Assembly (NCBI GenBank): GCA_036500365.1
Contig: DASYCF010000189.1
Location: 1 to 27,272, forward strand
Length of the DNA stretch: 27,272 nucleotides
Origin: Byssovorax sp.
GTDB taxonomy: Bacteria; Myxococcota_A; Polyangia; Polyangiales; Polyangiaceae
Direction of reading: 5' to 3'
Below, in pieces: positions 5,805 through 26,546 of this stretch; the stretch's first letter is position 1, and each line of letters opens with the position of its first letter. The notes beneath the pieces are model-generated. The model did not search any database. It was not told where the DNA came from and saw only the letters and a list, made by a program, of their open reading frames with translations. A program made the position numbers and the translations under genes.

Positions 5805-5816
5805 GCCGACCCACAC

Positions 5817-5832
5817 AGCAACCGCCGGACCA
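5817..5832 (-). promoter_or_regulatory. Putative sigma54 (-24/-12) promoter of the macA-like operon
   Basis: Minus strand reads TGGTCCGGCGGTTGCT: GG at 5831-5830, exactly 10 nt, GC at 5819-5818. Consensus is TGGCAC-N5-TTGCW. A sigma54 activator is encoded in the adjacent divergent operon. Confidence 0.6.
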
Positions 5833-5883
5833 CCCGCGATCCGGCCAAAAGCGCGCAAAATGGGGCGCACGGAATCCCTACAG

Positions 5884-5895
5884 GTGTCCGGGCAC
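5884..5895. promoter_or_regulatory. Near-palindrome GTGTCCGGGCAC, candidate enhancer-binding-protein site
   Basis: 10 of 12 positions are dyad-symmetric. It lies about 80-85 nt from both predicted sigma54 start sites. Confidence 0.3.
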
Positions 5896-5943
5896 GTGAC
5901 GCGGCCCGCTCCAGGAGCTGCTTGATCTAAGGTAAATGCCCTC

Positions 5944-5959
5944 GGGAACCCGGCTTGCT
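5944..5959 (+). promoter_or_regulatory. Putative sigma54 (-24/-12) promoter of the kinase-regulator operon
   Basis: GGGAACCCGGCTTGCT: GG at 5945-5946, 10 nt, GC at 5957-5958, with TTGCT at -12. Confidence 0.45.
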
Positions 5960-5972
5960 TCCGGTGAACACG

Positions 5973-7321
5973 ATGACGTTCTCGATCCGGCACCGCTTCC
6001 TCGCGGTCGCGCTCCTCGGCGTGACGATGTGCCTCGTTTCGCTCGGCGCGCTCTACCGGATCATGTCGGTGTCGAGCACGCAGCGGCTCGAGCGCGCGCG
6101 CGACGCCGCCGTGCAGGAGACGCTGATCCTCGCTGGCGCCGAGCCGGACGCGCGCCTCCGCGGCGTCGAGATCGCCGGGCCGAACGGCATGAAGAGCGGG
6201 TTCGTCGGCGACGACGACCGTCCCCCGGGCCTCGAGGCCGACTGGGCGCGCCCGTTCGATCTCGCGCGGGTGGCCGCCCGCGCGAGCGGCAAGCGCGCCG
6301 TGCAAGAGAAGTCGGTCGCCGGCGGCATGCTCGTCCTCGCCGTGACGCCCGCGCGCGGCGGCGGGTTCGCGTGGACCGCGGTCCCCGCGCCCGACCCGCC
6401 GAACCTCCGCATGTGGCGCATCATCGTCGCCGCGCTCACCGCGGCGACCCTGCTGCTCGTCGCCGCGTCGGTCGCCGCCGTCACGAGCGTGCGGGCTAGC
6501 GCCGGCTCGTTGAAGAGCTCGCTCGCTCGCCTCGCGCACGACCTCGACGCACCGGTCGAGCGGCCGCCCGTGCGCGAGATGGCCGAGGTCGCCGATGGCA
6601 TCGCCGATCTCGCGAGCGCCCTCGCGCGGTCCGAGAAGGAGCGCGATCGCCTCGGCGCCGAGCTCGCCGATCGCGAGCGCCTCGCCGCGCTGGGCCGCGT
6701 CGTCGCCGGCGTCGCGCACGAGGTCCGCAACCCGCTCGCGTCGATCAAGCTGCGCCTCGACCTCGCCGTGGCCGATCCCGCGCTGCCGGCCTCGTATCAA
6801 CAGTCGCTCGCCCGCACGTCGGAGGAGATCGATCGGCTCGATCGACTCGTCCGCGATCTCTTGCTCGTCGCCGGTCAGCGGCGCGGCGTCGTCGAGCGCT
6901 CGTCGCTCGGGGACCTCGCTCGGGCCCGCGTCGACCTGCTGGTTCCGTGGGCCCTCGAGCGCGACGTCCGCGTCAGCGCTCGCGGGGACGCGACGGCCGA
7001 GGTAGCTTCCGACGCGGTGGCGCGCGCCATCGACAACCTCGTGAAGAACGCCGTCGAGGCCTCCCCTGCCGGCGCAGAGGTGCGCGTCGTCGTCGAGAAC
7101 GACGCCGGCCTCGCGATGGTCCGCGTCGAGGACGAGGGGCCCGGCGTCGCGCCCGAGCGCACGCGCGAGCTCTTCGAACCGTTCTTCACGACGAAGTCCG
7201 AGGGCACCGGCCTCGGCCTCGCGATCTCGCGGTCGATCGCGGCGTCGCACGGCGGCACGCTGACCTACGCGCGCGCCGGCGACCGCACGCGCTTCTCGCT
7301 CTCGCTCGGAAAGGCGGCCGC

Positions 7322-9483: not shown

Positions 9484-12065
9484 CGCGGCACGACGCGGAC
9501 GGCGAACGCGTGCTCGCCCGTGTCGCGCGCCTTCGCCTCGCCCTCGTAGCGGTACGAGCCGTCGGGTCCACGACCCGCGAGCGCGAGCGGGACGGCGGCG
9601 CCGTGCGCGACCGCGTGGCCGCCGTGGAGACGCCCGCAGTAGAGCTCGACGGCGACGTCGTCGGGCGTGAGCTCGCCGAGCGCGACGTTCGCCGCGACAC
9701 CGCACGGCTGCCCGGCGAGGACGCGGCGCGCGCCGATCTGCTCGACGGCGACGACGCGCACGTCCTTCCACGCCGCGCCGACGCGCGCGCGCCACGCGGC
9801 CAGCGCGCGCGACGCCGCGAGGCCCTCGCCCTGCATGGCCCGGACGCGCAGGGCCGCGGGGGCGTACAGCGTCTCGGCGTACTCGCGCACCATCCGCGCG
9901 GTGTTGAAGCTCGCGCCGGTCGACGCGATGCTCCGCTTCACCCGCGCGAGCCAGGCGCGCGGCACGCCGCCCGCGTCGCGGTCGTAGAACGTCGGGACGA
10001 TCTGATCCTCGAGCAGCCGGTAGAGGAGCTCGGCCTCGACGCGATCGCCGTGCTCGGTGTCGGCGTACTCCTCGCCCGCGCCGATCGCGAAGCCGTTGTC
10101 GCCGGCGTACGCCTCGGCCCACCAGCCGTCGAGCACGCTCGCGTGGAGCGCGCCGTTGAGCGCCGCCTTCATGCCGCTCGTCCCGCTCGCCTCGAGCGGG
10201 CGGCGCGGCGTGTTCAGCCACACGTCGACGCCGGAGACGAGCGCGCGCGCGACGCTCATGTCGTAGTCCTCGAGGAACACGATGCGGCCGCGAAACGCCG
10301 GCGTGTTCGAGGCGCGCACGATCTCGCGAATGAGCTCCTTGCCGCCCCAGTCCTGCGGGTGGGCCTTGCCCGAGAAGACGAGCTGCACGGGGCGACCCTC
10401 GCCGCTCACGGCGCGGAGGAGGCGCGCCGCGTCGCGCAGCAAGAGCGTGCCGCGCTTGTACGTCGCGAAGCGCCGCGCGAAGCCGATCGTGAGCGCGCGC
10501 GGGTCGAGCGAGGCGAGCCGCTGCGCCGCCGCGGCCGCGCCGAACGCGACGCCGCTGCGCGAGATGCCCGTCGCGCGGCGCGCCTCGGCCGCGGCGACGT
10601 GCGACGGGATCGACGCGATCAGGCGCGCGCGCTCTGCCTCGCGAACCGCCCAGAGCTCCTCGTCCGGGATGCGCAGCGCGGCCTGCCACGTCGCCTGCTC
10701 GCCCGCGCGCTCGAGCCAGTCCCCGCCGAGGTGCCTCGCGTAGAGCGCGCACATCGCCGAGCTCGTCCACGTCGCCGTGTGCACGCCGTTCGTGATCGAG
10801 CCGATCGGCACCTCGTCGTCGCCGAGCTCGGGCCACAAGACGCGCCACATCGCGCGCGCCTCGCGGCCGTGGAGCAGGCTCACGCCGTTGTAGCGATCGG
10901 CCATGCGGATCGCGAGCACGGGCATCGAGAACTCGGCGCGCGCGTCCGTCGCCTCCACGCGGCCGATCTTGTGCACCTCGTCAGCCGTGAGCGCGACGCC
11001 CTTCGCGAGCACCTCGAGGTATGGCGCGATGAGGTCGTGCGCGAAGCCGTCGTTGCCGGCAGGCACGGGCGTGTGCGTCGTGAACACGTTGCCAGCGGCC
11101 GCGGCCTCACGCGCGACGGAGAACGGCGCGGCCGCGTCGTGCATCAGCTGCCGGACGCGCTCGAGCGCGAGGAACGCCGAGTGCCCCTCGTTCATGTGAC
11201 ACACCGTCGGCGCGACGCCGATCGCGCGCAGCATGCGCACGCCGCCGACGCCGAGGAGCAGCTCCTGGCGGATGCGGTGCTCACGGTCGCCGCCATACAG
11301 CGTGTTCGTCAGCGCGCGATCCTCGGGCGCGTTCTCCTCGAGGTTCGCGTCGAGCAGGTAGAGCGGCACGCGGCCGACGTCGACGCGCCACGCCTCGAGC
11401 GCGACGTCGCGCGTCTTCTTCGCGTCGCCCGCGACGGGCAGCGTGACCGTGACGCGCGCGCGTCGCCCGGCCGCGTCGTTCACCGCGCTGACGGGGAGGT
11501 CGTGCCAGTCGTTCGGCGGGTAGCGCTCGTTCTGCCAGCCCTCGGCGTCGAGCACCTGGCGGAAGTAGCCCTGCGAGAACGCGACGCCCACGCCGACGAG
11601 GGGAACGCCGAGGTCGCTCGCGCTCTTCAGGTGATCGCCCGCGAGCACGCCGAGGCCGCCGGAGTACACGGGCAGGCACGCGTGGATCCCGAACTCCATA
11701 GAGAAGTAGGCGATGGTGGCGCTCGCGATCGCGGCGGTCCCCGCGCCGTCGGCGTTCGGCCGGCCAAACCTGCGATCGAACCACGTCTCGCGGTGGAGGT
11801 ACGTGTCGAGGTCCGCGGTCACCGCGGCGAGCTCGGCGAGGTAGCCCGCGTCTCCCGCGAGCTCGACGAGCCGCGCCGTCGGCGCCCGCGCGACGACCGC
11901 GAGCGGGTTCTCGCCGAGCGCATGAAACGCGTCGGGATCGACGCGCGCGAAGAGCTCGCGCGCGCGATCGTTCCAGGACCACCAGAGGTTGTGCGCGAGC
12001 GAGAGCAGCGGCGCGAGCGGGCGGGGGACGTCGGGGACGACCTCGAAGCGATGAATCTTCTTCAT
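9432..12065 (-). CDS. glgP: Alpha-glucan (glycogen/starch) phosphorylase
   Basis: LAHNLWWSW; YFSMEFG; PVYSGGLGVLAGDHLKSASD; HMNEGH; FTTHTPVPAG; ITNGVH; GFARRFATYKR; GKAHP; PLP-lysine motif EASGTSGMKAALNG. Start is ATG 12065 (MKKIHRFEV), overlapping the upstream stop (ATGA). Confidence 0.97.
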   Translation of the reverse strand: MKKIHRFEVVPDVPRPLAPLLSLAHNLWWSWNDRARELFARVDPDAFHALGENPLAVVARAPTARLVELAGDAGYLAELAAVTADLDTYLHRETWFDRRFGRPNADGAGTAAIASATIAYFSMEFGIHACLPVYSGGLGVLAGDHLKSASDLGVPLVGVGVAFSQGYFRQVLDAEGWQNERYPPNDWHDLPVSAVNDAAGRRARVTVTLPVAGDAKKTRDVALEAWRVDVGRVPLYLLDANLEENAPEDRALTNTLYGGDREHRIRQELLLGVGGVRMLRAIGVAPTVCHMNEGHSAFLALERVRQLMHDAAAPFSVAREAAAAGNVFTTHTPVPAGNDGFAHDLIAPYLEVLAKGVALTADEVHKIGRVEATDARAEFSMPVLAIRMADRYNGVSLLHGREARAMWRVLWPELGDDEVPIGSITNGVHTATWTSSAMCALYARHLGGDWLERAGEQATWQAALRIPDEELWAVREAERARLIASIPSHVAAAEARRATGISRSGVAFGAAAAAQRLASLDPRALTIGFARRFATYKRGTLLLRDAARLLRAVSGEGRPVQLVFSGKAHPQDWGGKELIREIVRASNTPAFRGRIVFLEDYDMSVARALVSGVDVWLNTPRRPLEASGTSGMKAALNGALHASVLDGWWAEAYAGDNGFAIGAGEEYADTEHGDRVEAELLYRLLEDQIVPTFYDRDAGGVPRAWLARVKRSIASTGASFNTARMVREYAETLYAPAALRVRAMQGEGLAASRALAAWRARVGAAWKDVRVVAVEQIGARRVLAGQPCGVAANVALGELTPDDVAVELYCGRLHGGHAVAHGAAVPLALAGRGPDGSYRYEGEAKARDTGEHAFAVRVVPRHEALVDPFGARLVGWE

Positions 12066-14080
12066 TCGTGGATGACGACCAGCGTGCCCTCGCCGTTGTC
12101 CTCGTTCGCGTTCACGCCGTGCCAGCCGTCGGGCATCGGCGGATCGGTCCAGAAGAACAGCCGGTGCGCGTCGACCGGGGCGAGGTTCACGCAGCCGTGG
12201 CTCCGCGGCGTGCCGAAGACGTCGTGCCAGTAAGCGGCGTGGAGCGCATAGCCGCTCTCGAAGTACTGGATCCACGGCACGTCGCGGAGGAGGAACGTGC
12301 CCTCGCCGCGGCGCTTGGTCACGCCGTACTCGCCGTCGCCCTTGCGGGGGACGGGCTTGCCGTGCTCGCTCGGCTCCTTGTCGGCTTTGTCGACCTTCGC
12401 CTTCGAGGCGCCCTTGCCGCCGGTCGACTTGCTCGACGCGACCTTCTCGGCCTTGTCGGCCTTCTTGCCCTTCGCGTGCTTCGTCGGCTTGTCATCGTCT
12501 TCGGCGCGCGCGACGGGCTCGCTCGCGGTCTTCGAATCGGCCTTGCCGCCGACGCTCGAGCGCTCGTTCGAGTCCATCGTCGCGGTGACGTGCTTGTTCC
12601 GGATGTGGAAGACGCCGCGCACGGTGGCCGTCGTCTTCTTCGGATCGTCGAGGCCGGCCGCGCCCGTCGACACGAGCGTCGCGTAGACGGCCTTCTGGCC
12701 CTCCCACATCACGAGCGTCTGGTTCGTGATCGAGATCTCGATCCACTTCTTGCCCTGCTTCGCCTCGTCGGGCCAGGTGGCGGGCGGCACGGCGAGGCCG
12801 ACGTCCTGCGAGCTCAGCCAGTGCTTGTCGGTCGTGCGGTAGTACTTCACGCCCTCGACCGTGCGCATCGTGCCGGTGAGCCCGACCGCGCTCCGGTACT
12901 CGACCGGGTCGCTCGCGACCACCTTGCCCTTGACGATCTTGTAGCTCGTCGCGCCTTGCGAGCGCACGAACGCGAGCGGCGCGTCGAGGCCCCTGCCGAG
13001 CTCGACCCCGTGAAACGGCGAGCCCTCGTCTGGCTTGATCTTGCTCGCGGGCGCGAGGCGCATGTCGGTCGTGATGGCGAAGCGACGATCGAAGCCGTCC
13101 TCCGACGACAGGAACGAGCCGACGAGCGACAGGCCCGCGTGGCGACGCGCGCGATCGGCGAACACCTCGAAGCCCTTCGTGCGGTAGTCGCTGACGTTCG
13201 GGATCGCGCGCTTGTGACCCTCGAGCCAGAACGGCATCGCGTCGGAGTCCCCCTCGCCGCCGAGCAGCGCGCCGAGCGACAGCTCCTCCGAGTTCTTCGC
13301 GAGGCCGAGCTCGCCGAGCTTCTTGTCGGGGATGGCGACGCCGCGCGCGTCGATCGCGACGTCGTTCGCGCCGAGCGCCACCTTCGACGCGGCGGCGCCG
13401 TTGTCCTTGAACCAGTCGAGGTGCTCCTTGAGCTTGAACTCGGCCTTGAGCTGCTCGGCCGCGGTGGGCACGCGCATGTAGAGCGGGAGGACGGCGCGCA
13501 CGAACGCGTACGAGTACGGGAGCGGCGCGGCGAGGTTCGGTCGCTTCTGCGCGGCCTTGAGCAGGGGCGCGTCGAGGTCGACGGTCGCGTCGTCGCCGGC
13601 GCACACGAAGCCGCGCGGCTCGATCTGGTACCAGCCGCCCTTGCAGCCCGCGTGGCCGACGGGCTCCGCGCTCCGCGGCACCTTCGTTCCGACGCGCAGG
13701 TAGCCGAGCTTCTTCGCGGTGTCGCGCGGCTCCTTGTACACGGTGGCGACGAACGCCGTGACGCCGAGGAGCGGCTTGTCGCTCGCGTACGACGGCGTGG
13801 TCGGCGGCCGCTGCGGGTCGGCGACGGGCTCCGCGACGGCGAGGGCGCCTGCGCTCGACATCGGCGAAGCGCTCGACGCGGCGCTCGCCGACGCGGCCGG
13901 GCTCGACGCGACGTGCGTGCCCGCGATGAACGCCGCCGTCGCGACGGCCACGGAGAGCGCGCCGCCCGCGATCACGGCGCGCGACCGCGGAGCCGCCGCG
14001 ATCACGGCCCGCAACCGCGGAGCCGTCGACGACAAGCGGCGCGCCGCTGCGCTCGCGAGGACACTGAACACCCGCGCCAT
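12062..14080 (-). CDS. L,D-transpeptidase (YkuD domain at C-terminus), membrane-anchored, myxobacterial type
   Basis: KWIEISITNQTLVMWEG...YATLVSTG; DVPWIQYF; catalytic ALHAAYWHDVFGTPRSHGCVNL (His and Cys); N-terminal TM segment and Ala/Ser linker. Confidence 0.9.
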   Translation of the reverse strand: MARVFSVLASAAARRLSSTAPRLRAVIAAAPRSRAVIAGGALSVAVATAAFIAGTHVASSPAASASAASSASPMSSAGALAVAEPVADPQRPPTTPSYASDKPLLGVTAFVATVYKEPRDTAKKLGYLRVGTKVPRSAEPVGHAGCKGGWYQIEPRGFVCAGDDATVDLDAPLLKAAQKRPNLAAPLPYSYAFVRAVLPLYMRVPTAAEQLKAEFKLKEHLDWFKDNGAAASKVALGANDVAIDARGVAIPDKKLGELGLAKNSEELSLGALLGGEGDSDAMPFWLEGHKRAIPNVSDYRTKGFEVFADRARRHAGLSLVGSFLSSEDGFDRRFAITTDMRLAPASKIKPDEGSPFHGVELGRGLDAPLAFVRSQGATSYKIVKGKVVASDPVEYRSAVGLTGTMRTVEGVKYYRTTDKHWLSSQDVGLAVPPATWPDEAKQGKKWIEISITNQTLVMWEGQKAVYATLVSTGAAGLDDPKKTTATVRGVFHIRNKHVTATMDSNERSSVGGKADSKTASEPVARAEDDDKPTKHAKGKKADKAEKVASSKSTGGKGASKAKVDKADKEPSEHGKPVPRKGDGEYGVTKRRGEGTFLLRDVPWIQYFESGYALHAAYWHDVFGTPRSHGCVNLAPVDAHRLFFWTDPPMPDGWHGVNANEDNGEGTLVVIHE
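13966..14025. repeat. 30-bp tandem duplication (2 copies, 28/30 identical) in the 5' end of the L,D-transpeptidase gene
   Basis: CCGCGATCACGGCGCGCGACCGCGGAGCCG followed by CCGCGATCACGGCCCGCAACCGCGGAGCCG; encodes APRLRAVIAA / APRSRAVIAG. Confidence 0.9.
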
Positions 14081-14129: not shown

Positions 14130-15815
14130 TCACTCTCCGGGCGTCACGACGGGGCGATAGCGGAACGCGTCGGTCTGCGTGAGCGCGACGAGCAGCGAGC
14201 GAATCGAGTAGTTCGACGCCTTGAACGCGCCCTGGAGCTGCACGAGCGAGCACTCGTTCGGCGTCTCGCCGCGACCGTACGCGAAGCGGAACCACTGCGT
14301 CGCGACGCAGTTCTTCACGTCTTCGCTGCCGGCGAGCCGCTGCGCGAGCTGCACCGCGCCGACGAACGGGCCGTCGCAGTCGCCCGAGTCGTACACGTCG
14401 CCCGACGCGTCGACCGGGAGGCCTTGATCCGTGGTCCGATACGCGCCGACCGCGTCGTAGTTCTCGAACCCGAAGCCGATCGGATCCATCAGGTGGTGGC
14501 ACGTCGCGCACGACGAATCGGCCGAGTGCTCCGCGTAGAGCTCGCGCGTGCTGACGCCGGCCGTGACCTGGGGCGGCGTGATGATGAGGTTGTTCGGCGG
14601 CGGCGGCAGCGGCTGGCACAGCAGACGCTCGCGGACGAACTTGCCGCGGAGGATCGGGCTCGACGTGTCGGGCTTCGCGTTGATCGTCATGATGCTCGGC
14701 TGCGTCACGAAGCCGGCGCGCTCGGTCGGGTCGAGGTCGACCTTCACGAACGACTCGCCGGTCACGCCGCGCACGCCGTAGAAGCTCGCGAGCTCCTCGT
14801 CGACGAGCGAGTACGACGCGGTGAGCATCTCGGTCACGTCGCCCTGGCCCTGGAAGACGACGTAGTCGAGGAACGCCTGCGTCTCGCGCTTCATCAGCGG
14901 AATGAGCGCCGGCGTCCACCTCGGCGAGACGTACTCCGCGTCCTTCGTCACGGTGTCGATGTCGTCGAGGCCGAGCCACTGCGTGTGGAAGTTCTCGACG
15001 GCGTCGTGCGCGCGCGGGTCGTCGAGCATGCGCGTGGCCTGCGCGGCGATTTGATCGGCCGTCTCGAGCTCGCCAGCGGCCGCCGCGGCGAAGAGCGCGT
15101 CGTCTGGCGTCGAGTTCCAGAGCATGAACGAGAGGCGCGACGCCATCTCGTAGTCGTCGAGCTGCACGACGCCGGCCGACACCTCGGTCGTCGTGCCGAA
15201 CTCGACGCGGTAGAGGAAGTGCGGCGACTGGAGCACCGCCTCGATGACCAACTGGATCGCGGACTGGAAGCCGAACGTCGGCTTGGCCGTGGTGTAGAGG
15301 TTCGTGAGGCGCGTCGTCGTCGAGTCGTCGAGCGGGCGGCGGAACGCGCGGCCCCCGAAATCGGCGATGAACTGCGCGGCGCACGCGTCCTGGCCGGTGA
15401 CGGTCACGTCGCACTTGAGGAGCGTCGGCATGTCGCGCGTCGCCCGGATGGCGATGCTTTCGGCGGCGTCGAGGTACTGCTCGGCGAGGAGCTTCGAGAC
15501 GGCGAGCGACGTCGCCTGATCGTCGAAGCCGAGCGACTGCGCCTCGGGCACCATGTCGGCGGCGGGGTTCGACGTGTCGCCGAGGAGATCGCGGATCGTG
15601 TTGTCGTACTCGGTCCGCGTGAGCCTGCGCATCGGCGCGGCGCCCGGGTTGATCCCGCCGCCGCAGTCGGCCGTCTGCGGGACGTCGACCGGGTTCGGCG
15701 GATCGCCGAGGTCGCCCGAGGTGCATCCGGCGACGACGCCGCCAGCGAGCGCCACGAAGAGCGCGACGCCCATGCCGAGCGAGGTCCGACGGTGCCTCCA
15801 ACGCTGCAAGCGCAT
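14130..15815 (-). CDS. DUF1592-family lipoprotein (DUF1587-DUF1595-DUF1592-DUF1588-DUF1585-type architecture) with a CxxCH motif
   Basis: Lipobox VVAGC; MRRLTRTEYDNTIRDLLG; RAFRRPL; VLQSPHFLYRVE; YEMASRLSFMLWNSTPDDAL; SPILRGKFVRERLLC; SCATCHHLMDPIGFGFENYDAVG. ATG 15815 has a GGAG RBS. Confidence 0.88.
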   Translation of the reverse strand: MRLQRWRHRRTSLGMGVALFVALAGGVVAGCTSGDLGDPPNPVDVPQTADCGGGINPGAAPMRRLTRTEYDNTIRDLLGDTSNPAADMVPEAQSLGFDDQATSLAVSKLLAEQYLDAAESIAIRATRDMPTLLKCDVTVTGQDACAAQFIADFGGRAFRRPLDDSTTTRLTNLYTTAKPTFGFQSAIQLVIEAVLQSPHFLYRVEFGTTTEVSAGVVQLDDYEMASRLSFMLWNSTPDDALFAAAAAGELETADQIAAQATRMLDDPRAHDAVENFHTQWLGLDDIDTVTKDAEYVSPRWTPALIPLMKRETQAFLDYVVFQGQGDVTEMLTASYSLVDEELASFYGVRGVTGESFVKVDLDPTERAGFVTQPSIMTINAKPDTSSPILRGKFVRERLLCQPLPPPPNNLIITPPQVTAGVSTRELYAEHSADSSCATCHHLMDPIGFGFENYDAVGAYRTTDQGLPVDASGDVYDSGDCDGPFVGAVQLAQRLAGSEDVKNCVATQWFRFAYGRGETPNECSLVQLQGAFKASNYSIRSLLVALTQTDAFRYRPVVTPGE

Positions 15816-15980
15816 TTCGTAAGCTCCGCGCCAGGGCGCGCAGGCCCGAGCCCGCAAAGGCTACCGCCGCGCCGACCCACCGTCGACCCCGTTCGCCTGC
15901 GCTCGGCGTCGCGACGTGAAACCTCGCGTGTTCGACCGTCGCGCGCGAAAGCTGCGACCCGATGTACTAGGCTCCGCGGC

Positions 15981-16823
15981 GTGACTTACTCCGGCGCCGC
16001 TCGCCCAGCGGCCCTCGGCGCGATCGCGAGCGCGCTCGCCTTCGCCGCGGCCACCGCGTCGCTCGCCCGGCCCGCCGAAGCGGACGAGCCGGCGCGCGAG
16101 AAGAACGCGGTCGGCACCGAGCTCTTCGAGTTCGGCCTCGCGATGGCCGCCGGGGGACGACGCTTCACGTACTCGGATCCGGTTTCGGCGAACATCCGCG
16201 ACTACAGCGTGTTCGGCGCGGTGATGCCCGAGCTCCACCTCGCGTTCTACCCTGCCGCGGACACCGGGATCACGTTCGCGCGCGACGTCGGCTTCGAGCT
16301 CACGGCGACGAGCGCGTTCGGCCTGTCGTCGCAGTCGAGCGACGGAACCAGCGTCGGCAGCTCGTACGATCGCCTCGACGCGATGGTGCGCGCGCGGTTC
16401 TTTCCGGCGGGCCGGACCGGCACGTCGCTCGGCCTCGCGGGCGGCGCGTCGCTGCTGCGGTTCTCGTACGACGCGAGCGGCTCGCTGGCCGACCAGGTGC
16501 CGGGCGCCGCGTACGAATCGCTCCGCCTCGCCGGCGACGCGCGAGCGCCGATCGGCCGCGGCGCGCTGACGATCGCGATCGCGTACGACGCGCCGCTCAC
16601 GGCGGGCGACGTATACGACCGCTTCACCGGCTCGACCGTAGGTGGGATCGACGTGCGCCTCGGCGCGTCGTTCCTCGTCGGCGCGGGCGTCGAGGTGCGC
16701 GCGGCCGCGTCGTACACGCGCTTCTTCTATGCGTTCGCGCCCGTCCCCGGTGACACCTACGTGGCGGGCGGCGCCCTCGACGAGTTCTTCGGCCTGTCGC
16801 TCGGAGCTGCGTATGCGTACTGA
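15981..16823 (+). CDS. Putative outer-membrane beta-barrel protein (about 10 strands), unknown function
   Basis: Sec-type signal peptide ending AEA; about 10 alternating amphipathic strands (ELFEFGLAMAAG, VGFELTATSAFG, GVEVRAAASYTRFFY); C-terminal aromatic beta-signal GLSLGAAYAY. This is the tail of track ORF 13719..16823; the GTG 15981 start is inferred. Confidence 0.7.
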   Translation: MTYSGAARPAALGAIASALAFAAATASLARPAEADEPAREKNAVGTELFEFGLAMAAGGRRFTYSDPVSANIRDYSVFGAVMPELHLAFYPAADTGITFARDVGFELTATSAFGLSSQSSDGTSVGSSYDRLDAMVRARFFPAGRTGTSLGLAGGASLLRFSYDASGSLADQVPGAAYESLRLAGDARAPIGRGALTIAIAYDAPLTAGDVYDRFTGSTVGGIDVRLGASFLVGAGVEVRAAASYTRFFYAFAPVPGDTYVAGGALDEFFGLSLGAAYAY

Positions 16824-17541
16824 TCCGGCGCGCTCGAGCCTCCGCCTGCGCGCCGTCGCGGCGGCGCTCGCGGCCCTCGGCGCAGGCGCGTCGCTCGCGG
16901 GCTGCCCCGGCACGCTCGACGACAAAGGCGCGTTCCTGCACCCGGACGGGAGCGACTGCCCCGACGTGCCGTCGACGATCTTCATCCCGAACTGCGCGAC
17001 CGCCCCGGGGTGCCACTCCGCCGCCGATCGCATGCAGGGCCTCGACCTCGCGTCGCCGAACGTGGCCGCGCGCGTCGTCAACCAGCCCGCGAAGGAGTGC
17101 GTGCCCGGCATCCTCGCCGACCCCGCGAACCCGTCGCAGAGCATCCTCTATTTGAAGCTGTTCCAGCCGGCGCCGTGCGGCTCGCAGATGCCCCTCGGCG
17201 CCGACCCGCTGAGCGACACGCAGATCGCGTGCGTCGAGACGTGGATCCAGGATCAAGGCGCGGGCGGCAGCGGCGTCGGCGGATCGGGCGGAGCCGGCGG
17301 CGCGACGGGGGTGGGCGGCGCGGCGCAGTCCGGATCAGGCGGCGCGGGCGGCGCAGGCGGGACCGCAGCGGGCGGCGGCGGCGCAGGTGGTCTCGGAGGC
17401 ACTGCGCCGACCGGAGGTGGCGGCTCCGCGAGCAGCGGCGCCGCGAGCGCGTCGGGCGGCGCCGGTCTCGGCGGCGCGAGCGCGACCGGCACATCGGGTG
17501 GCGCAGGTCGCGGTGGCGCGGGCGGCGGCGGCGGCGCGTGA
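16813..17541 (+). CDS. Lipoprotein with atypical CX5CH cytochrome-c-like domain and Gly/Ala/Ser-rich tail
   Basis: Canonical lipobox SLAGC; CATAPGCH (16993-17016); distal GSQMPLG; WI at domain end; about 94-aa Gly-rich tail. ATG 16813 has a GGAG RBS and overlaps the beta-barrel gene by 11 nt. Confidence 0.7.
   Translation: MRTDPARSSLRLRAVAAALAALGAGASLAGCPGTLDDKGAFLHPDGSDCPDVPSTIFIPNCATAPGCHSAADRMQGLDLASPNVAARVVNQPAKECVPGILADPANPSQSILYLKLFQPAPCGSQMPLGADPLSDTQIACVETWIQDQGAGGSGVGGSGGAGGATGVGGAAQSGSGGAGGAGGTAAGGGGAGGLGGTAPTGGGGSASSGAASASGGAGLGGASATGTSGGAGRGGAGGGGGA
17257..17538 (+). repeat. Low-complexity Gly/Ala/Ser/Thr (GGC-rich) coding repeat
   Basis: GAGGSGVGGSGGAGGATGVGG...GGGGGA running to the stop codon. 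Confidence 0.9.
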
Positions 17542-17542
17542 C

Positions 17543-17558
17543 GCCGGGGCGCCCCGGC
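17543..17558. terminator. Perfect 16-bp palindrome GCCGGGGCGCCCCGGC just after a stop codon; possible terminator or RNA stabiliser without a U-tract
   Basis: Self-complementary; starts 1 nt after the TGA ending at 17541; no poly-T. Confidence 0.35.
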
Positions 17559-17573
17559 TGAAGGCTCGCGCCG

Positions 17574-19868
17574 ATGCGACTCCGGCTGCGATCGTTCGCG
17601 CTCGCGGCGCTGCCCGTCCTCTACGTCGCCGCGGTCTCCGTGCAGCAGACGGGCGGCAGCGCGCTCGCGTTCGCCATGCTCGGAGGCCTCCCGCTCGCGC
17701 TCCTCTTCGCCTGGTCGCGCACGGCGCCGCCGGTGCGAGGCGTCGATCGAACCGACGGGGTCGCGCGAACCGGGGCGCGCGTCGCGTTCACGGGCGCGGC
17801 GCTGGTCTGCGCCGCGCGGACGGGCACCGGCGGCGCAGGGTTCCTCGCCGCAGAGAACCTCGGCGCCGCGCTCGCGGCGACCGGCGGCCTCGTCGCGTTC
17901 TCGCGTGTGCAGGGACCGGGCGGCCTGGTCGACGCGTCGCCGCGGCCACGGAGGCTCGACGCCGCCGCGTTCGGCTCGCTGCTCTGGGCGGTCGCGATCG
18001 CGCTGCCTGCGGCGCAGATCGCGGCGCCGGACCGCGCGCAGGGGCTCGACCCGCGCTGGCTCGACTACGGCGTCGTCGCGGCGTCGCTCGCGTCGCTCGG
18101 CGTGATGCTCGCCTCGACCGCGCTCGTGCTCGTGCAGAAGCGCCTCGAGCTCGGCGCCGCCGACCGCGCCGGCGCTGCGTTCTCGCTCGCGCTGACGGCG
18201 CTGCTCGTCGGCGTGCTCGCGGCGGTGACGGGCGTGGCGCCGGCCGAGCGCCTGCTCCCGCTCGCGTGCGCGTGCGCCGGCGTCGCGCTGGCGGCGAGCG
18301 CGGTCGCGCGGGAGGCCGACGCGCTCGCACAGGCGAACCGCGTCACGCTCGCCGCCGCCGCGCTCGTCGCGCCGCTCGCCCTCTTCGCGGGGTACGTCGC
18401 GCGCGTGGCGCCGAAGCGGAGCGCGGCCACGGTCGCCGTCGCCGTCGCCGCGGCGTCGCTTGCGGGGATGATCGCGCCGATCCTCGGACGGCGCCTCTTC
18501 GCGCCGGCCGCGGGGCGGTGGCTCTCCGCGCTCGACGCCGCGACGCGCGCCGCGATGACGCCCGATCCCGAGGCCGCGCTCGAGGCTGCGCTGCTCGCGC
18601 TGCGCGCCGCCGCGGGCCAGCGCGGCAAGGACCCGGCGCTCTATTTCGTGGGCGTCCCCGAGGTCGTCACCGTCGACCGGGCCGGGTACGCGCGGCGGGA
18701 GCGCGCGGAGCCGCCGCCGCGCCTCGTCGAGCTGGCGGCCGAGGAGCCCGAGGGCGTGCTGCGGCTCGAGGTGCTGCGCGCGGTGCTCGTGCGCAGGCCC
18801 GACGTGCGCCCGCTCGAGGCGTGGCTCGATCAGCGCGGCTTCTCGGCGCTCGCGCTCGTTCGCGACGACGCGGGGCCGATCGGACTGCTCGCCATCCCGG
18901 CTGGCTCACGTCGCCGCGCGTGGACGCTCGAGGAGGCGCGCGCGCTGCGCCGGCTCGCGGATCGTCTCGGCGCGGTGATCGGCGCGTCGGCGCTCCTCGC
19001 GAGGTCGCGCGCGCGTGAGCTCGAGGTGCGCGGCGAGCTGGCGAACGCGCGGACCCAGATCACGGAGCACGCCGCGGCGCGCGCCCGCGACGCGACACGC
19101 CACCGCGCCGCCGCCGAGGCGCTCGCGCGGCGAGCGCGCCTCGCGTCGTACAGCCCCGCCGCACGCGCGGCGCGCGAGGCCATCGAGCGGCTCGCCGAGC
19201 GCGGCCGACCGATCGCGCTGTTGTCCGCGCCCGGCATCGACGCGTCGACGTGGGCAGCGGCGGCGCACCTCGCGTCGGCGCGCCGCGACGGTCCGCTGGT
19301 CGTCGTCGCGGGGACCCGCGTCGCGGAGCACGGCCTCGATCGATGGCGCGACCCCGCCGCGTCGCCGCTCGCGGCCGCGGAGACGGGCACGCTCGTGCTC
19401 CTCGACGCGCAGGCGCTCCCGCTCGACGTGCAGCGCTACGTCGCGGCGTCGCTGGGGGACTCGACCGGCCTCGTCGTCTCGCTCCGCGCGACGGTCGACG
19501 CGCTCGTCGCCGCCGACGCGCTCGGCGAAGAGCTCGCGGATCGGCTCGGCGATCGCGCCGTCGCGCTGCCGCCGCTCGCCGCCCGCGCCGAGGACCTGCG
19601 CGCGCTCACGCTCGAGATCCTGGCCGAGCTCTCGATCACGCTCGGCGCGCGGGCCGTCGGCCTCGACGCGATGGCCCTCGCGGTCCTGCTCGAGCACGAG
19701 TTCCCGGGCAACGACGCCGAGCTCGCGGCGGTGCTCGTCCGCGCCGCGCTCGCAGCGCGAGGGGACGCGATCACCCGGGCCGACCTCGAGCGCGCAGGGT
19801 TCACGGCGGCGGCCGAGCTGTCTCCACACCCGCGGCGCGCGTCGAGCAGGCCCCCGCGCGCGCGCTGA
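17574..19868 (+). CDS. Polytopic membrane protein with a GAF-like middle region and a degenerate sigma54-activator-type AAA+ domain, no HTH
   Basis: First 310 or so aa contain about 9-10 hydrophobic helices. The C-terminal part is collinear with enhancer-binding AAA+ domains: YSPAARAAREAIERLA, GPLVVV, GTLVLLDA, ELADRL, LPPLAARAEDL, EFPGNDAEL. Confidence 0.7.
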   Translation: MRLRLRSFALAALPVLYVAAVSVQQTGGSALAFAMLGGLPLALLFAWSRTAPPVRGVDRTDGVARTGARVAFTGAALVCAARTGTGGAGFLAAENLGAALAATGGLVAFSRVQGPGGLVDASPRPRRLDAAAFGSLLWAVAIALPAAQIAAPDRAQGLDPRWLDYGVVAASLASLGVMLASTALVLVQKRLELGAADRAGAAFSLALTALLVGVLAAVTGVAPAERLLPLACACAGVALAASAVAREADALAQANRVTLAAAALVAPLALFAGYVARVAPKRSAATVAVAVAAASLAGMIAPILGRRLFAPAAGRWLSALDAATRAAMTPDPEAALEAALLALRAAAGQRGKDPALYFVGVPEVVTVDRAGYARRERAEPPPRLVELAAEEPEGVLRLEVLRAVLVRRPDVRPLEAWLDQRGFSALALVRDDAGPIGLLAIPAGSRRRAWTLEEARALRRLADRLGAVIGASALLARSRARELEVRGELANARTQITEHAAARARDATRHRAAAEALARRARLASYSPAARAAREAIERLAERGRPIALLSAPGIDASTWAAAAHLASARRDGPLVVVAGTRVAEHGLDRWRDPAASPLAAAETGTLVLLDAQALPLDVQRYVAASLGDSTGLVVSLRATVDALVAADALGEELADRLGDRAVALPPLAARAEDLRALTLEILAELSITLGARAVGLDAMALAVLLEHEFPGNDAELAAVLVRAALAARGDAITRADLERAGFTAAAELSPHPRRASSRPPRAR

Positions 19869-22829: not shown

Positions 22830-25160
22830 ATGACCCGTCATTTGCGTCGCGCTCTCGGTGGTCGTGCGTCCCTCGGCGCGCTGCTCGTCGCGATCTCGTT
22901 CGGCGGCCTCGGCGGCTGCTCCTCGGGGACCGACACGGCGAGCACCGACGGCGATGCCAACGGCGCTCAATGCCAGACGACGAAGGACTTCTTCGAGACG
23001 GAGGTCTGGAGCCCGTTCATGGGTCAGGTCTGTTACGACTGCCACGGTCCAGGCGGCAAGGCGCAGCAGCAGAACGCCAAGTTCCTCCTCCAGCCGGCCG
23101 CGTCGCCCGATTTCATCGACCAGAACCTCGCCAACATCAAGACGGTCATCTCGTACGAGTTCAACGGAGTCCCCGAGATCCTCGTCAAGCCCGTCGGCGG
23201 CGCGAACCACGGCGGCGGCGCCGTCATCTCGGCAGACGGTCCCGAGATCCAGGCGCTGACGCAGCTCGTCCAGAAGATCCAGCAGGGGGACGGCGGCTGC
23301 GTCGAGGCGCCGAACTCCACGATCGCCGCCGTGAAGCTCCTCGGCCCGACCGACACGTTCCGCAAGGCGGCGCTCGATCTCGGCGGACGCCTCCCCACGG
23401 CGACGGAGACTGCCGCCATCGCGAAGGGCGGCGACGCGGCGCTCGACACGGCCCTCGACGAGCTGATGACGGAGGACACGTTCCTCCAGCGCCTCCGCGA
23501 GATCTGGGGCGACATCCTCCTCACCGACAAATACTACCTGTCGTACAGCGGCGCCGCGATCGACTCGCTCAACGAGCAGACGATGTACCCGGCGCTCGCT
23601 CCCTACAAGGATCCCAACAACCCGAAGTACATGGATCCGAATCGGCCGCTCATCAACCAGGCCATCGCGCAGGAGCCGCTGAACCTCATCGCCTACATCG
23701 TGAAGAACGAGCTGCCATTCACCGACGTCGCGGCCGCCGACTACACGGTGGTGAACCCGTTCCTCGCGACCGCGTACGGCGTGACGGACGTCCAGTTCAC
23801 GGATCCGACCGATTACAATGAATGGCACCCGGCGCACGTCACCCTCGGGACCGGGACCGCGCTCCCGCACGCGGGCATCCTGTCGACGCCGGTGTTCTTG
23901 AACCGCTGGCAGACGACGCCGACGAACCGCGACCGCGGCCGCGCGCGCCGCGTGCTCCTGTTCCTCCTCGCGACCGACATCCTCCAGATCGCGACGCGGC
24001 CCATCGATCCCACGGCGATCACGCAGGACGACAACCCCACCCTCGACGACCCGCTGTGCACGGTCTGCCACACGATCATCGACCCGCTCGCGGGCGGCTT
24101 CCGCGGATACGACCCGTACGACTACGAGTCGTTCGATCCGGACGTCGCGATCAGCGGCTGGTACACCGACATGGCGCCGACGGGATACGACGGCACGAAC
24201 ATGGATCCGTCGCAGTACGCGACCGCGCTGCCCTGGCTCGCGTCGCAGGTCGCCGCGGACCCGCGCTTCATCACCAACGCGGTGAACGTCATCTACACCG
24301 GATTCACGGGCCGCACGCCGATCCTCTATCCGCAAGACAACACGGATCCGAACTTCGTGTCGAACCTCGCCGCCTGGACGGCGCAGGACGCGTTCCTCAC
24401 CGCGACGGGCCAGGCCTTCACGAAGTCGCACATGAACCTGAAGACGATCGTGAAGGCCGTCGTGAAGAGCGCGTATTACCGCGGCTCCGCGGCGGGCAGC
24501 TCGACCGCGGATCCCGTGCTGCTGACCGACGTGGGCGGCGGCCGCCTGCTCACGCCGGAGATGCTCTCGCGCAAGGTGTCCGCCGTCGTCGGCTTCTCGT
24601 GGCACCCGAACTGGGACGCGACGCACGACTACCTCGCTCAGGACTACCGCATCACGTACGGCGGCATCGACTGCGACTCGGTGACGACGCGCCTCACGAC
24701 GCCGAACGGCATCATGTCCGCCGTGCAGTCGCGCCTGGCGAGCGAGATGGCCTGCCACGCGACGGCGTTCGATTTCACGAAGCCCGCGGCCGATCGCCTG
24801 CTCTTCCCGAACGTCGAGCTCGCCGAGGTGCCCGAGTCCGCCGGCAACACGGTCTCGGGCTCGGTCGACGACATCAAGGCGAACATCGTCTACCTGCACC
24901 AGCAGATCCTCGGAGAGACGCTGAGCACGGACGACCCGGAGGTGCAGCGCACCTATCAGGTCTTCCTCGACACGTGGCACGAGCTCTCCGAGAGCGGCGT
25001 GACCAGCGTGAACTGGGAGTGCGAAGGCCGGTGGGACTGGACCGACGACTCCGATCTGTCGGACGACGTGATCATCAGCGACGACCAGAACTTCACGATG
25101 CGCTCGTGGCAGGCGGTGGTCACCTACCTCCTGTCCGACTACTCGTTCCTCTACCAATAG
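22830..25160 (+). CDS. Large acidic lipoprotein, DUF1588/DUF1592-related, with two CxxCH heme-binding motifs
   Basis: Lipobox GLGGC; CYDCH (23031-23045) in an N-terminal cytochrome-like domain (NHGGG); FRKAALDLGGRLPT; HAGILSTPVFLNRWQTTPTNRDRGRAR; CTVCH (24057-24071) followed by IIDPLA; ends YLLSDYSFLYQ; GGAGG RBS. Confidence 0.82.
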   Translation: MTRHLRRALGGRASLGALLVAISFGGLGGCSSGTDTASTDGDANGAQCQTTKDFFETEVWSPFMGQVCYDCHGPGGKAQQQNAKFLLQPAASPDFIDQNLANIKTVISYEFNGVPEILVKPVGGANHGGGAVISADGPEIQALTQLVQKIQQGDGGCVEAPNSTIAAVKLLGPTDTFRKAALDLGGRLPTATETAAIAKGGDAALDTALDELMTEDTFLQRLREIWGDILLTDKYYLSYSGAAIDSLNEQTMYPALAPYKDPNNPKYMDPNRPLINQAIAQEPLNLIAYIVKNELPFTDVAAADYTVVNPFLATAYGVTDVQFTDPTDYNEWHPAHVTLGTGTALPHAGILSTPVFLNRWQTTPTNRDRGRARRVLLFLLATDILQIATRPIDPTAITQDDNPTLDDPLCTVCHTIIDPLAGGFRGYDPYDYESFDPDVAISGWYTDMAPTGYDGTNMDPSQYATALPWLASQVAADPRFITNAVNVIYTGFTGRTPILYPQDNTDPNFVSNLAAWTAQDAFLTATGQAFTKSHMNLKTIVKAVVKSAYYRGSAAGSSTADPVLLTDVGGGRLLTPEMLSRKVSAVVGFSWHPNWDATHDYLAQDYRITYGGIDCDSVTTRLTTPNGIMSAVQSRLASEMACHATAFDFTKPAADRLLFPNVELAEVPESAGNTVSGSVDDIKANIVYLHQQILGETLSTDDPEVQRTYQVFLDTWHELSESGVTSVNWECEGRWDWTDDSDLSDDVIISDDQNFTMRSWQAVVTYLLSDYSFLYQ

Positions 25161-25199
25161 GCCGACGAACCGAACTCGGAATCGAGGAGCAACAGCGCC

Positions 25200-26546
25200 A
25201 TGGATCGACGCCGCTTCGTTCAGCTCGCAGGTCTCGCAGGTCTCGGCTTCATCGCCCCGGTCGGCCTCAAGGTCAGCCGCGCGGACTCCGGCAAATACGG
25301 GGGTCCGTACTTCATCATGGTCGACGCGAACGGCGGGTGGGATCCGACGTTCTGCTGCGATCCCAAGGGTGGAGACATCGACCGTCCGTACACCGTCGGT
25401 CAGATCGGGACGGCCGGCAACATCCACTACGCGCCGATCTCCGGCGTGACGTCGCAGAGCGAGACCTTCTACACGAACCAGGCGTTCTTCGAGAAGTACT
25501 ACTCCCGCCTCATGATCCTGAACGGCGTCGACACGGAGACGAACAACCACGACAGCGGCACGCGGACCACGTGGTCCGGGCAGCTCGACGAGGGGTATCC
25601 GTCGTTCGGCGCGCTCGCCGCCGCGGTCGCGCTCGAGAAGCTCAACGTGCCGCTCGCGTTCCTCAGCGCCGGCGGGTACGACGCGACCGAGGGCGTCTGT
25701 TCGTTGAGCCGCGTCGGCGATCCCGACGTCGTCGAGAAGCTCGCGTACACGAACACGATCAACCCGGGCGACACGGCGAACGCGACCGAGTACTACAACA
25801 CGCCGACGACCGCGGCGCGCATCGCCGCGGCGCAGGCTGCGCGCCTCCAGGCGAAGCGGGACAAGCAGAGCCTGCCCGCGCCGAAGGCGGCGATGAGCTC
25901 GCTCTTCCTCACGCGGAGCGGGAGCTCGGGGCTCGGCGAGCTCGCGCAGGAGCTCGCCACGACGCCGCTGCTCTCTCCCACCGATCTGCCCGATCTGGCG
26001 CACATCCAGGACACGAACTCGCTCAACGATCTCAAGAGCGTGATTCAGCAGGCGCAGCTCGCCGTGCTCGCCTTCCAGGCCGGCGTCGCCGTGAGCGCGA
26101 ACTTGAACATCACCGGCTTCGACACGCACTCGAACCACGACGCGAATCAATCGCACCAGATGGCGTCGCTGCTGCGTGGGCTCGCGTTCCTGTTCGATCT
26201 CCTCGACTCGACCGGCCTCGCCGACAAGACGTACGTCATCGTGGGATCGGACTTCGGTCGCACGCCGACGTACAACGCAGACGGCGCGGGCGGCGGCAAG
26301 GACCACTGGAACATCACGAGCATGATGCTCGCGGGACCCACCGTGCAGGGCAACCTCGTGATCGGCGGCACGGACTCCGCCCAGGTGTCCACGACCGTCA
26401 ACGAGCAGCTCCAACCGGACTCGGGCGGCTTCCGCGTGACGACGCCGCTCATCCACGTCGCGCTGCGAAAGCTCGCGGGCGTGACCGGGACGGCCAACGA
26501 TCTCGCCTTCCCGCTCGCGGGCGACGTGCTGCCGTTCTTCGGCTGA
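25200..26546 (+). CDS. DUF1501 domain protein with twin-arginine (Tat) signal peptide
   Basis: MDRRRFVQLAGLAG; GGWDP; GFDTHSNH; VGSDFGRTP; GKDHW; GAGGAG RBS; typical partner position downstream of a DUF1588-type lipoprotein. Confidence 0.88.
   Translation: MDRRRFVQLAGLAGLGFIAPVGLKVSRADSGKYGGPYFIMVDANGGWDPTFCCDPKGGDIDRPYTVGQIGTAGNIHYAPISGVTSQSETFYTNQAFFEKYYSRLMILNGVDTETNNHDSGTRTTWSGQLDEGYPSFGALAAAVALEKLNVPLAFLSAGGYDATEGVCSLSRVGDPDVVEKLAYTNTINPGDTANATEYYNTPTTAARIAAAQAARLQAKRDKQSLPAPKAAMSSLFLTRSGSSGLGELAQELATTPLLSPTDLPDLAHIQDTNSLNDLKSVIQQAQLAVLAFQAGVAVSANLNITGFDTHSNHDANQSHQMASLLRGLAFLFDLLDSTGLADKTYVIVGSDFGRTPTYNADGAGGGKDHWNITSMMLAGPTVQGNLVIGGTDSAQVSTTVNEQLQPDSGGFRVTTPLIHVALRKLAGVTGTANDLAFPLAGDVLPFFG

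Follow-up and report, generated by a model that had tools for sequence, protein, structure and literature searches.

Does a small lipoprotein whose gene runs into that of an outer-membrane barrel carry haem on an unusually spaced cysteine motif, and do the two proteins belong together? The question is raised by a stretch of 27,272 nt of Byssovorax sp. DNA (contig DASYCF010000189.1 of assembly GCA_036500365.1), hereafter the window, in which a predicted beta-barrel gene and a lipoprotein gene overlap by 11 nt. The lipoprotein has no canonical CXXCH motif and falls within the broader CXnCH definition, with a single such motif, CX5CH, in its 242 residues. A reading of the letters alone, which we call the original prediction, had pointed to these features and to the logic of porin-cytochrome conduits. 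We give a probability of about 0.6 to the following answer: the lipoprotein carries haem c attached by the Ccm system, sits tethered at the outer membrane, is produced along with a small barrel that anchors it or acts as its partner, and works as a one-electron carrier or oxidoreductase. This answer takes the two genes, conserved as a pair, for a translationally coupled outer-membrane module of Polyangia. The features at issue are these.

15981 to 16823, + strand: outer-membrane beta-barrel gene, short form, 280 aa (P0001); GTG start at 15981, TGA at 16821-16823
16803 to 16806, + strand: GGAG, Shine-Dalgarno-like, read directly from the sequence; within the barrel 3' end and 6 nt ahead of the lipoprotein ATG
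16813 to 16823, + strand: 11-nt overlap ATGCGTACTGA, coding in two frames for the barrel end ...YAY-stop and for lipoprotein MRTD
16813 to 17541, + strand: lipoprotein gene, 242 aa (P0002); ATG start at 16813, TGA at 17539-17541
16894 to 16905, + strand: lipobox LAGC (Cys31), then conserved CPGTLxDK, from the translation and alignment A1
16942 to 17262, + strand: FoxE/PSCyt1-type, class-I-like cytochrome c domain, residues ~44-150, from profile, structure and BLASTP matches
16993 to 17016, + strand: CATAPGCH, the putative CX5CH haem-attachment motif (residues 61-68: Cys61, Cys67, His68)
17188 to 17193, + strand: Met126-Pro127 in GSQMPLG, putative distal axial ligand motif
17263 to 17538, + strand: Gly/Ala/Ser-rich low-complexity C-terminal tail, residues 151-242

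Both genes are real. Against a window G+C of ~73%, the barrel gene has a codon-position GC (GC3) of 0.92 and the lipoprotein gene one of 0.88, values that mark both open reading frames as genuine + strand genes and the long antisense frames as their shadows. Chance is excluded by the dozens of homologues found for each protein and by the recurrence of the pair, with its 11-nt overlap, in other genomes. The overlap and the motifs CATAPGCH and GSQMPLG, all described in the original prediction, are present in the sequence and its translations. A promoter and terminator scan over 15700-17800 gave nothing meaningful.

The lipoprotein starts with a signal peptide bearing the lipobox LAGC, an export signal that places the apoprotein in the periplasm. 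A word-indexed search gave 57 homologues; those with a name are hypothetical proteins from metagenome-assembled genomes (MAGs) of Polyangiaceae or Myxococcales. Among cultured members of the class, Minicystis rosea has a lipoprotein homologue on record and a Sorangium strain a barrel homologue. An alignment and profile built from 33 of the 57 (A1, mean column identity 30%) has C31, C61, C67, H68, D78, L79, M126, P127 and W144 invariant, with P32, G33, L35 and D37 each conserved at 90% or more. The C-terminal tail varies among the homologues in length and composition, or is missing. An AlphaFold2 (AF2) model of the lipoprotein has a mean predicted local distance difference test score (pLDDT) of 77, with values above 86 for residues 81-150.

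Four results place the domain with FoxE and PSCyt1, an assignment of fold and family, as a class-I-like cytochrome c domain, that we hold to be nearly certain. First, the Pfam family PSCyt1 (PF07635) is matched by five of the 33 close relatives (best E 4.5e-5), and a few match Cytochrom_C or Cytochrome_CBB3; among the loci that exceed the Pfam PSCyt1 cut-off in genomes of the same class, 17 of 30 are also matched by A1 over the whole domain, and PSCyt1 is found in 25-91% of the members of some clusters that neighbour the lipoprotein domain in the ESM Atlas. Second, a broader profile (A4), made from 81 domains sampled across the family, aligns end to end with both haem domains of FoxE (PDB 5MAB) at E=6.7e-13, pairing the C..CH motif, the G-L-[DN]-L segment, the M-P-[LP]-G segment and the W-I helix. 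The next A4 matches are cytochromes c6 (E 7e-6 to 1e-3), then CcoP and other c-type cytochromes; the narrower A1 profile reaches cytochrome c6 at an E of only ~0.1. Third, a VIA-align structure scan with the AF2 model ranks FoxE at the top (Z 5.7 over 83 aa, root-mean-square deviation 3.0), and about 30 of the 50 matches listed are c-type cytochromes, which apart from FoxE mostly score Z 2.3-3.7. Fourth, BLASTP aligns the window domain with five CX2CH domains of the protein P0110 at 33-40% identity (E 5e-12 to 9e-10), and the only gap in these alignments lies inside the Cys...Cys-His motif.

The original prediction had called the lipoprotein cytochrome-c-like, a view upheld by the A4-FoxE match and by the conserved ligand residues described below. 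It had also found the pair to match no system that could be named; the cytochrome domain, at least, can now be named as FoxE/PSCyt1-type.

FoxE, of Rhodobacter ferrooxidans SW2, is a dihaem c-type cytochrome from the foxEYZ operon for phototrophic Fe(II) oxidation. It shares with the window protein its domain family, the best structural match and an extracytoplasmic location, and it too has a bracing disulfide (PMC10654088). It differs in being soluble and two-domained, with canonical CXXCH motifs, with Met ligands described as exchanged between the domains (PMC10654088) and with FoxY and FoxZ beside it, whereas the window protein is a single lipid-anchored domain with CX5CH, a Gly-rich tail and a barrel partner; the kinship implies no link to Fe(II). 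PSCyt1 ('Planctomycete cytochrome C', of Planctomycetes-Verrucomicrobia-Chlamydiae bacteria) overlaps with our family in sequence and keeps the same genomic company of PSD/DUF1592-type and DUF1501 proteins (PMC3542564). It is usually the N-terminal module of large multidomain CXXCH proteins, in contrast to the stand-alone, below-threshold CX5CH lipoprotein of the window. Class I monohaem cytochromes c such as c6 have the same order of elements, an N-terminal C..CH helix, Met-Pro about 60 residues later and a C-terminal helix; the window domain differs from them in its stretched Cys spacing, extra predicted disulfides, lipid anchor and longer insert between motif and Met.

The family is very large. 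A profile search over 1.84 billion representatives gave 17,396 clusters at E<=1e-3, of which 560 reach E<=1e-30; Myxococcota account for most of the best-matching members examined, and in many proteins of the family the domain is repeated in tandem two to eight times. Arrays with as many as 7-8 copies occur in proteins of 960-1830 aa (P0110, P0111, P0126 and others), where CX2CH copies are often mixed with copies that have CX3CH or CX4CH; such chains of class-I-type domains would be multihaem proteins of the 'beads-on-a-string' kind.

Does the domain retain what a haem site would use? We aligned to A1 a sample of 322 domains from the 207 best proteins. C61 is kept in 320, C67 in 320, H68 in all 322, M126 in 318 and P127 in 320, so the His and Met singled out by the original prediction are conserved. 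Its placing of the distal Met like a class I axial ligand also agrees with our alignments, in which Met126-Pro127 falls on the axial-Met motif of cytochrome c6 (MPAF) and on MPLG/MPPG of FoxE. The four further Cys, which it had thought capable of forming disulfides, fall into two co-varying pairs. Of the 322 domains, 103 have both C96 and C122, 199 have neither and 20 have only one of them; for C49 and C140 the numbers are 160, 121 and 41. This is the pattern of two optional disulfides, C49-C140 and C96-C122, as far as co-variation can tell. Near-total retention of Cys, Cys-His and Met-Pro, set beside structural Cys pairs that are gained and lost, argues for a cofactor site and not a relic.

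The Cys spacing is less rigid. In the same sample CX4CH is found 208 times, CX2CH 95 times, CX5CH 12 times and CX3CH four times, and the first Cys is missing from five domains. Among 63 multi-domain proteins, 30 carry CX2CH domains beside CX3CH, CX4CH or CX5CH domains in one chain. All other members examined of the window's own orthologous group have CX4CH (e.g. CGGTGCH, CATAGCH), and CATAPGCH looks like a one-residue (Pro) insertion into that form. CX5CH arose several times in different sequence contexts, with His and Met-Pro retained each time. The original prediction was right that the CX5CH motif is non-canonical and real; CX4CH is the norm among its relatives, and CX5CH departs from it by a single inserted residue that is rare in the family. 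The haem motifs given as described in a recent survey are CXCK, CX2CK, CX3CH, CX4CH, CX11CH, CX15CH and CX17CH, of which CX4CH is an accepted natural motif that binds haem in known cytochromes (PMC11492766).

These counts also bear on a rival in which the protein is a haem-free derivative. CX4-5CH would then be no substrate for the haem lyase, the Cys pair would form a disulfide or contribute to a Cys/His/Met metal site (e.g. for Cu or Zn), and the lipoprotein, with no redox function, would serve the barrel in a structural, binding or chaperone role. It gains from the fact that Cys, His and Met are typical soft-metal ligands too, and from the few family members without the first Cys (the GCTTHH variants). 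A relic should drift, yet Cys, Cys, His and Met-Pro are kept in ~99% of the 322 domains while the other Cys vary; stretched and canonical motifs alternate within single polypeptides; the independent origins of CX5CH each preserved the His and Met-Pro; and the haem binding of CX4CH in known cytochromes (PMC11492766) speaks the same way. We regard a haem-free protein as unlikely.

Two observations on the motif may be added. In the locus L094 (G031:C321, ~1456-1743) a domain over the PSCyt1 cut-off (35.9 bits) has CASSAGQCH, that is CX6CH, so that stretched spacing is not confined to the Pfam-negative branch. In P0129, P0130, P0140 and P0176 the sequence G-C-T-T-H-H replaces C..CH, with the first Cys lost and a second His gained; such variants may bind haem through a single thioether or non-covalently, or may have lost function.

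Several points weigh against reading the lipoprotein as a haem-bearing partner of the barrel. It lies below the thresholds of Pfam PSCyt1, Cytochrom_C and the NCBIfam models: it has no Pfam match at E<=1, its only NCBIfam match is TIGR03806 (a dihaem cytochrome family) at E 0.16, and a six-frame PSCyt1 search of the window's genome did not reach its gene. This failure with every curated cytochrome model also favours the haem-free rival. With the lipoprotein model, Foldseek, which the original prediction had proposed to run against cytochrome c folds, returned nothing from the PDB at E<=0.001, the ranking of FoxE at the top coming from VIA-align; and the model is moderately confident around the motif (pLDDT 64-88 for residues 41-80). 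CX5CH is outside the described natural motifs (PMC11492766), which again suits the haem-free protein, and neither 'CX5CH' nor 'CXXXXXCH' is mentioned anywhere in the literature searched. Haem in CX4CH and CX5CH members of this domain family is a prediction, and PSCyt domains are generally uncharacterised (bioRxiv 10.1101/150078). Because the CX5CH of the window stems from a Pro insertion, maturation of this copy could be poor. In FoxE each haem is described as receiving its axial Met from the opposite domain (PMC10654088), which makes ligation in a single-domain lipoprotein uncertain; it may occur in cis or through a dimer. Finally, the position of the lipoprotein and its contact with the barrel are themselves inferred.

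On balance haem attachment is plausible, judging from motif and relatives, and least certain for the CX5CH copy of the window; we think it rather probable that the lipoprotein binds haem. The machinery is there: the genome, 76% complete, has a CcmE gene (66 bits) and three Cytochrom_C_asm genes of CcmC/CcmF type over cut-off, which amount to System I (Ccm). ResB was not found in this 76%-complete genome.

The rest of the preferred reading, from haem attachment and ligation to location, barrel contact and physiological redox partner, we infer as follows. The lipoprotein would be routed by Sec and Lol and loaded with one haem c in the periplasm by System I. Thioethers to Cys61 and Cys67 would hold the haem in the stretched CX5CH loop, with His68 as proximal and Met126 as distal ligand, and up to two disulfides (C49-C140 and C96-C122) may brace the fold. 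Tethered to the outer membrane, the product would carry single electrons or act as an oxidoreductase, and it would be present in a fixed ratio with the barrel, which would serve as its anchor or partner and possibly as a small-solute channel, and would form no sheath around the cytochrome.

What, then, is the barrel? The protein has a Sec-type signal peptide and ends in AAYAY. It has no usable Pfam or NCBIfam match. Its AF2 model, with 22 homologues in the input, has 10 strands, the number that the original prediction had roughly estimated, at a mean pLDDT of 84. In Foldseek this model finds OmpT, Pla and OpcA at the top (E 7e-9 to 5e-7, 11-13% identity); all three are 10-stranded and are the closest solved folds. 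The 51 homologues found make up a Myxococcota family with a conserved C-terminal barrel. Most are 440-480 aa long because of an extra N-terminal periplasmic domain (residues ~35-175 in the long forms P0062-P0109). The window copy is a short form, to which the barrel family profile (A2) aligns only at profile positions 161-449. The extra domain, absent from the window copy, lies near CsgG/LpoB/DUF3280-like folds in the ESM Atlas. The A2 alignment has 16 invariant and 24 nearly invariant columns and a conserved motif PGDxYVAGGALD. The barrel has no Cys-X-n-Cys-His motif of its own.

An enzymatic role like that of the omptins (OmpT, Pla) was considered and rejected because no His is conserved in the barrel family: there is none among the 16 invariant and 24 nearly invariant columns. 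The barrel has no Pfam omptin match either, and the likeness is one of fold only.

Are the two genes linked elsewhere? The original prediction had named conservation of the pair as a check, and we find the genes adjacent in at least 40 genomes from 10 Polyangia families, with ~45 adjacent pairs and up to three pairs per genome. These numbers come from matching by hand the coordinate tables of the lipoprotein and barrel profile searches, and the tables hold the top-scoring loci and are not a full census. Starting from the barrel, we find an A1-type gene no more than 1.5 kb away, on the same strand, at 22 of the 30 best loci from 301 genomes of the class. Starting from the lipoprotein, 19 of 27 loci, in named GTDB genomes that are all Polyangia MAGs, have a barrel partner on the same strand. 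Among 18 wider neighbourhoods, TBLASTN found the pair in 16, and a profile search added a 17th (in G163).

The pair occurs in two orders: lipoprotein followed by long-form barrel, which is commoner across the class, and barrel followed by lipoprotein, as in the window. The 11-nt ATG-to-stop overlap recurs in at least 10 other genomes (L113, L114, L115, L117, L118, L121, L122, L123, L124 and L126), in which barrel ...Y-A-H/Y-stop and lipoprotein M-R-T-D/E are written in overlapping frames; dual coding with the barrel C-terminus accounts for the conservation of the first four lipoprotein residues (MRTD/E). In genomes with barrel-then-lipoprotein order the barrel mostly ends in His, not in the usual aromatic residue. 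Adjacency through an inversion of gene order, repeated duplication of the pair and the conserved overlap together point to a functional unit whose two products are made in a fixed ratio.

Direct contact between the two proteins is a closer call. A predicted complex of barrel residues 33-280 with lipoprotein residues 31-150 scored 0.25 against a mark of 0.32, in a run without controls that is uninformative on binding. We put physical partnership at about even odds.

The domain also occurs apart from the barrel. In one family of large-genome Polyangia (f16) several copies of the cytochrome-type domain are present in 46 of 46 genomes and the barrel family in none of the 46, which shows that the domain is not dependent on the barrel. 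In f16 the cytochrome-type gene is often divergent from a DUF1592-type gene (L010, L013, L014, L019, L020 and L028).

The porin-cytochrome conduit suggested by the original prediction can be set against the known cases. Like MtrAB and PioAB, or the fused Cyc2, the window couples an outer-membrane barrel gene to a c-type-cytochrome-like gene. In MtrAB, PioAB and Cyc2 the barrel is far larger and surrounds a haem domain that is multihaem or fused to it. The window barrel has 10 strands and 280 aa, and its partner has one haem motif where the MtrAB and PioAB partners are multihaem; in Cyc2, haem motif and barrel share one polypeptide, where the window has two genes. As modelled, a 10-strand barrel of OmpT/OpcA size cannot house a cytochrome. 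A conduit of Mtr/Pio type therefore fails on its defining features, the barrel being 10-stranded and the haem motif single, and this part of the original prediction is not supported.

A weaker version keeps the electron exchange without the conduit. The pair would be a Cyc2/FoxE-like metal-oxidising or electron-exchange unit, a split and miniature porin-cytochrome in which Fe(II), or some other small reductant or oxidant, enters through the barrel and is oxidised or reduced by the tethered cytochrome at the inner face of the outer membrane. The strict coupling of barrel and cytochrome genes, adjacent through the inversion of gene order, would suit this, as would the unusually conserved residues of the barrel with the PGDxYVAGGALD motif. 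FoxE, the nearest relative that has been characterised, is reported to accept electrons from Fe(II) (PMC10654088). The homology to it is at domain level only, with no FoxY or FoxZ among the genes of the window; no downstream electron carriers were identified in the operon; and the barrel has only 10 strands. Barrels of the OmpT/OpcA size class are not known to be channels, nor are Polyangia known to oxidise iron. We consider metal oxidation very unlikely. Hardly better placed, and still quite improbable, is the more general claim that the pair is a minimal and hitherto unrecognised redox unit of the outer membrane, e.g. a Cyc2-like oxidase in two parts that acts on Fe(II) or a different small redox-active solute. 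The family would then show System I to mature CX4CH, CX5CH and even CX6CH sites naturally in monohaem domains of class I type, a widening of the haem-attachment motifs known so far.

The coupling could also be read as export. Here the barrel would be an assembly or export factor, Slam-like or RcsF/OmpA-like, that flips the lipoprotein to the cell surface, the CPGTLxDK tether or the Gly-rich tail threading through its lumen. The segment after the lipid-modified Cys, with P32, G33, L35 and D37, is unusually conserved, synthesis is coupled by the overlap, and a disordered Gly-rich tail is present in many family members. Yet many orthologues without the tail still have the barrel, and the barrel resembles neither Slam (DUF560) nor any other lipoprotein translocon that is known. 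This we consider the most improbable of the alternatives.

The preferred reading, a barrel-coupled cytochrome c lipoprotein, builds on what is known, a c-type cytochrome domain related to FoxE and PSCyt1. New are a very large and mostly unannotated branch in which CX4CH is standard and CX3CH, CX5CH and CX6CH are natural variants, the sequence link of PSCyt1-type domains to FoxE, and the barrel-lipoprotein cassette of Polyangia with its conserved 11-nt coupling overlap. If haem binding is true, thousands of clusters would belong to an unannotated c-type cytochrome branch with CX4CH replacing CXXCH. This would be useful for genome-wide cytochrome counting, normally done with CXXCH only, and for haem lyase tolerance. 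The uncharacterised 'planctomycete' PSCyt1 would be tied to the solved and functionally studied FoxE, and a tightly coupled cassette of barrel and cytochrome lipoprotein would be defined in Polyangia. Without haem, the family would be a clear example of a cytochrome fold adapted to a different purpose.

One neighbour recurs beside the cytochrome-type gene.

14130 to 15857, - strand: lipoprotein with DUF1592/DUF1588/DUF1587/DUF1595/DUF1585 (PSD/PSCyt3-type), by Pfam; divergent neighbour and recurrent context, with module membership not implied

At 10 of 56 other loci, barrel-less genomes included, the cytochrome-type gene has a DUF1592-type gene within 1.5-3 kb, which is suggestive of an association that is not universal. 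About 5 kb downstream of the pair, at 22830-26546, the window encodes a 776-aa protein with a weak DUF1592 match and a DUF1501 protein; orthologues of these two lie 1.5-4 kb from a cytochrome-type lipoprotein in two genomes (L036 in G287 and L045 in G163). A second occurrence of the domain in the window was considered and dropped after A1 found no second window protein, matching neither the N-terminal cytochrome-like part of the DUF1592-like gene (22830-25160) nor the other window proteins.

On the downstream side, 33 nt 3' of the lipoprotein gene, positions 17574-19868 encode a membrane protein with a degenerate sigma-54-activator AAA+ domain. One further genome from the same family (L034, G263, 4768-6678) encodes this kind of protein directly 3' of the pair, and the gene for it may be co-transcribed with the pair. 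On the - strand, positions 12062-14080 encode a 672-aa YkuD L,D-transpeptidase homologue, in which the match to the catalytic domain spans residues 445-670 for a profile of 146 positions, indicating a large Lys/Ala/Asp-rich insertion inside the domain.

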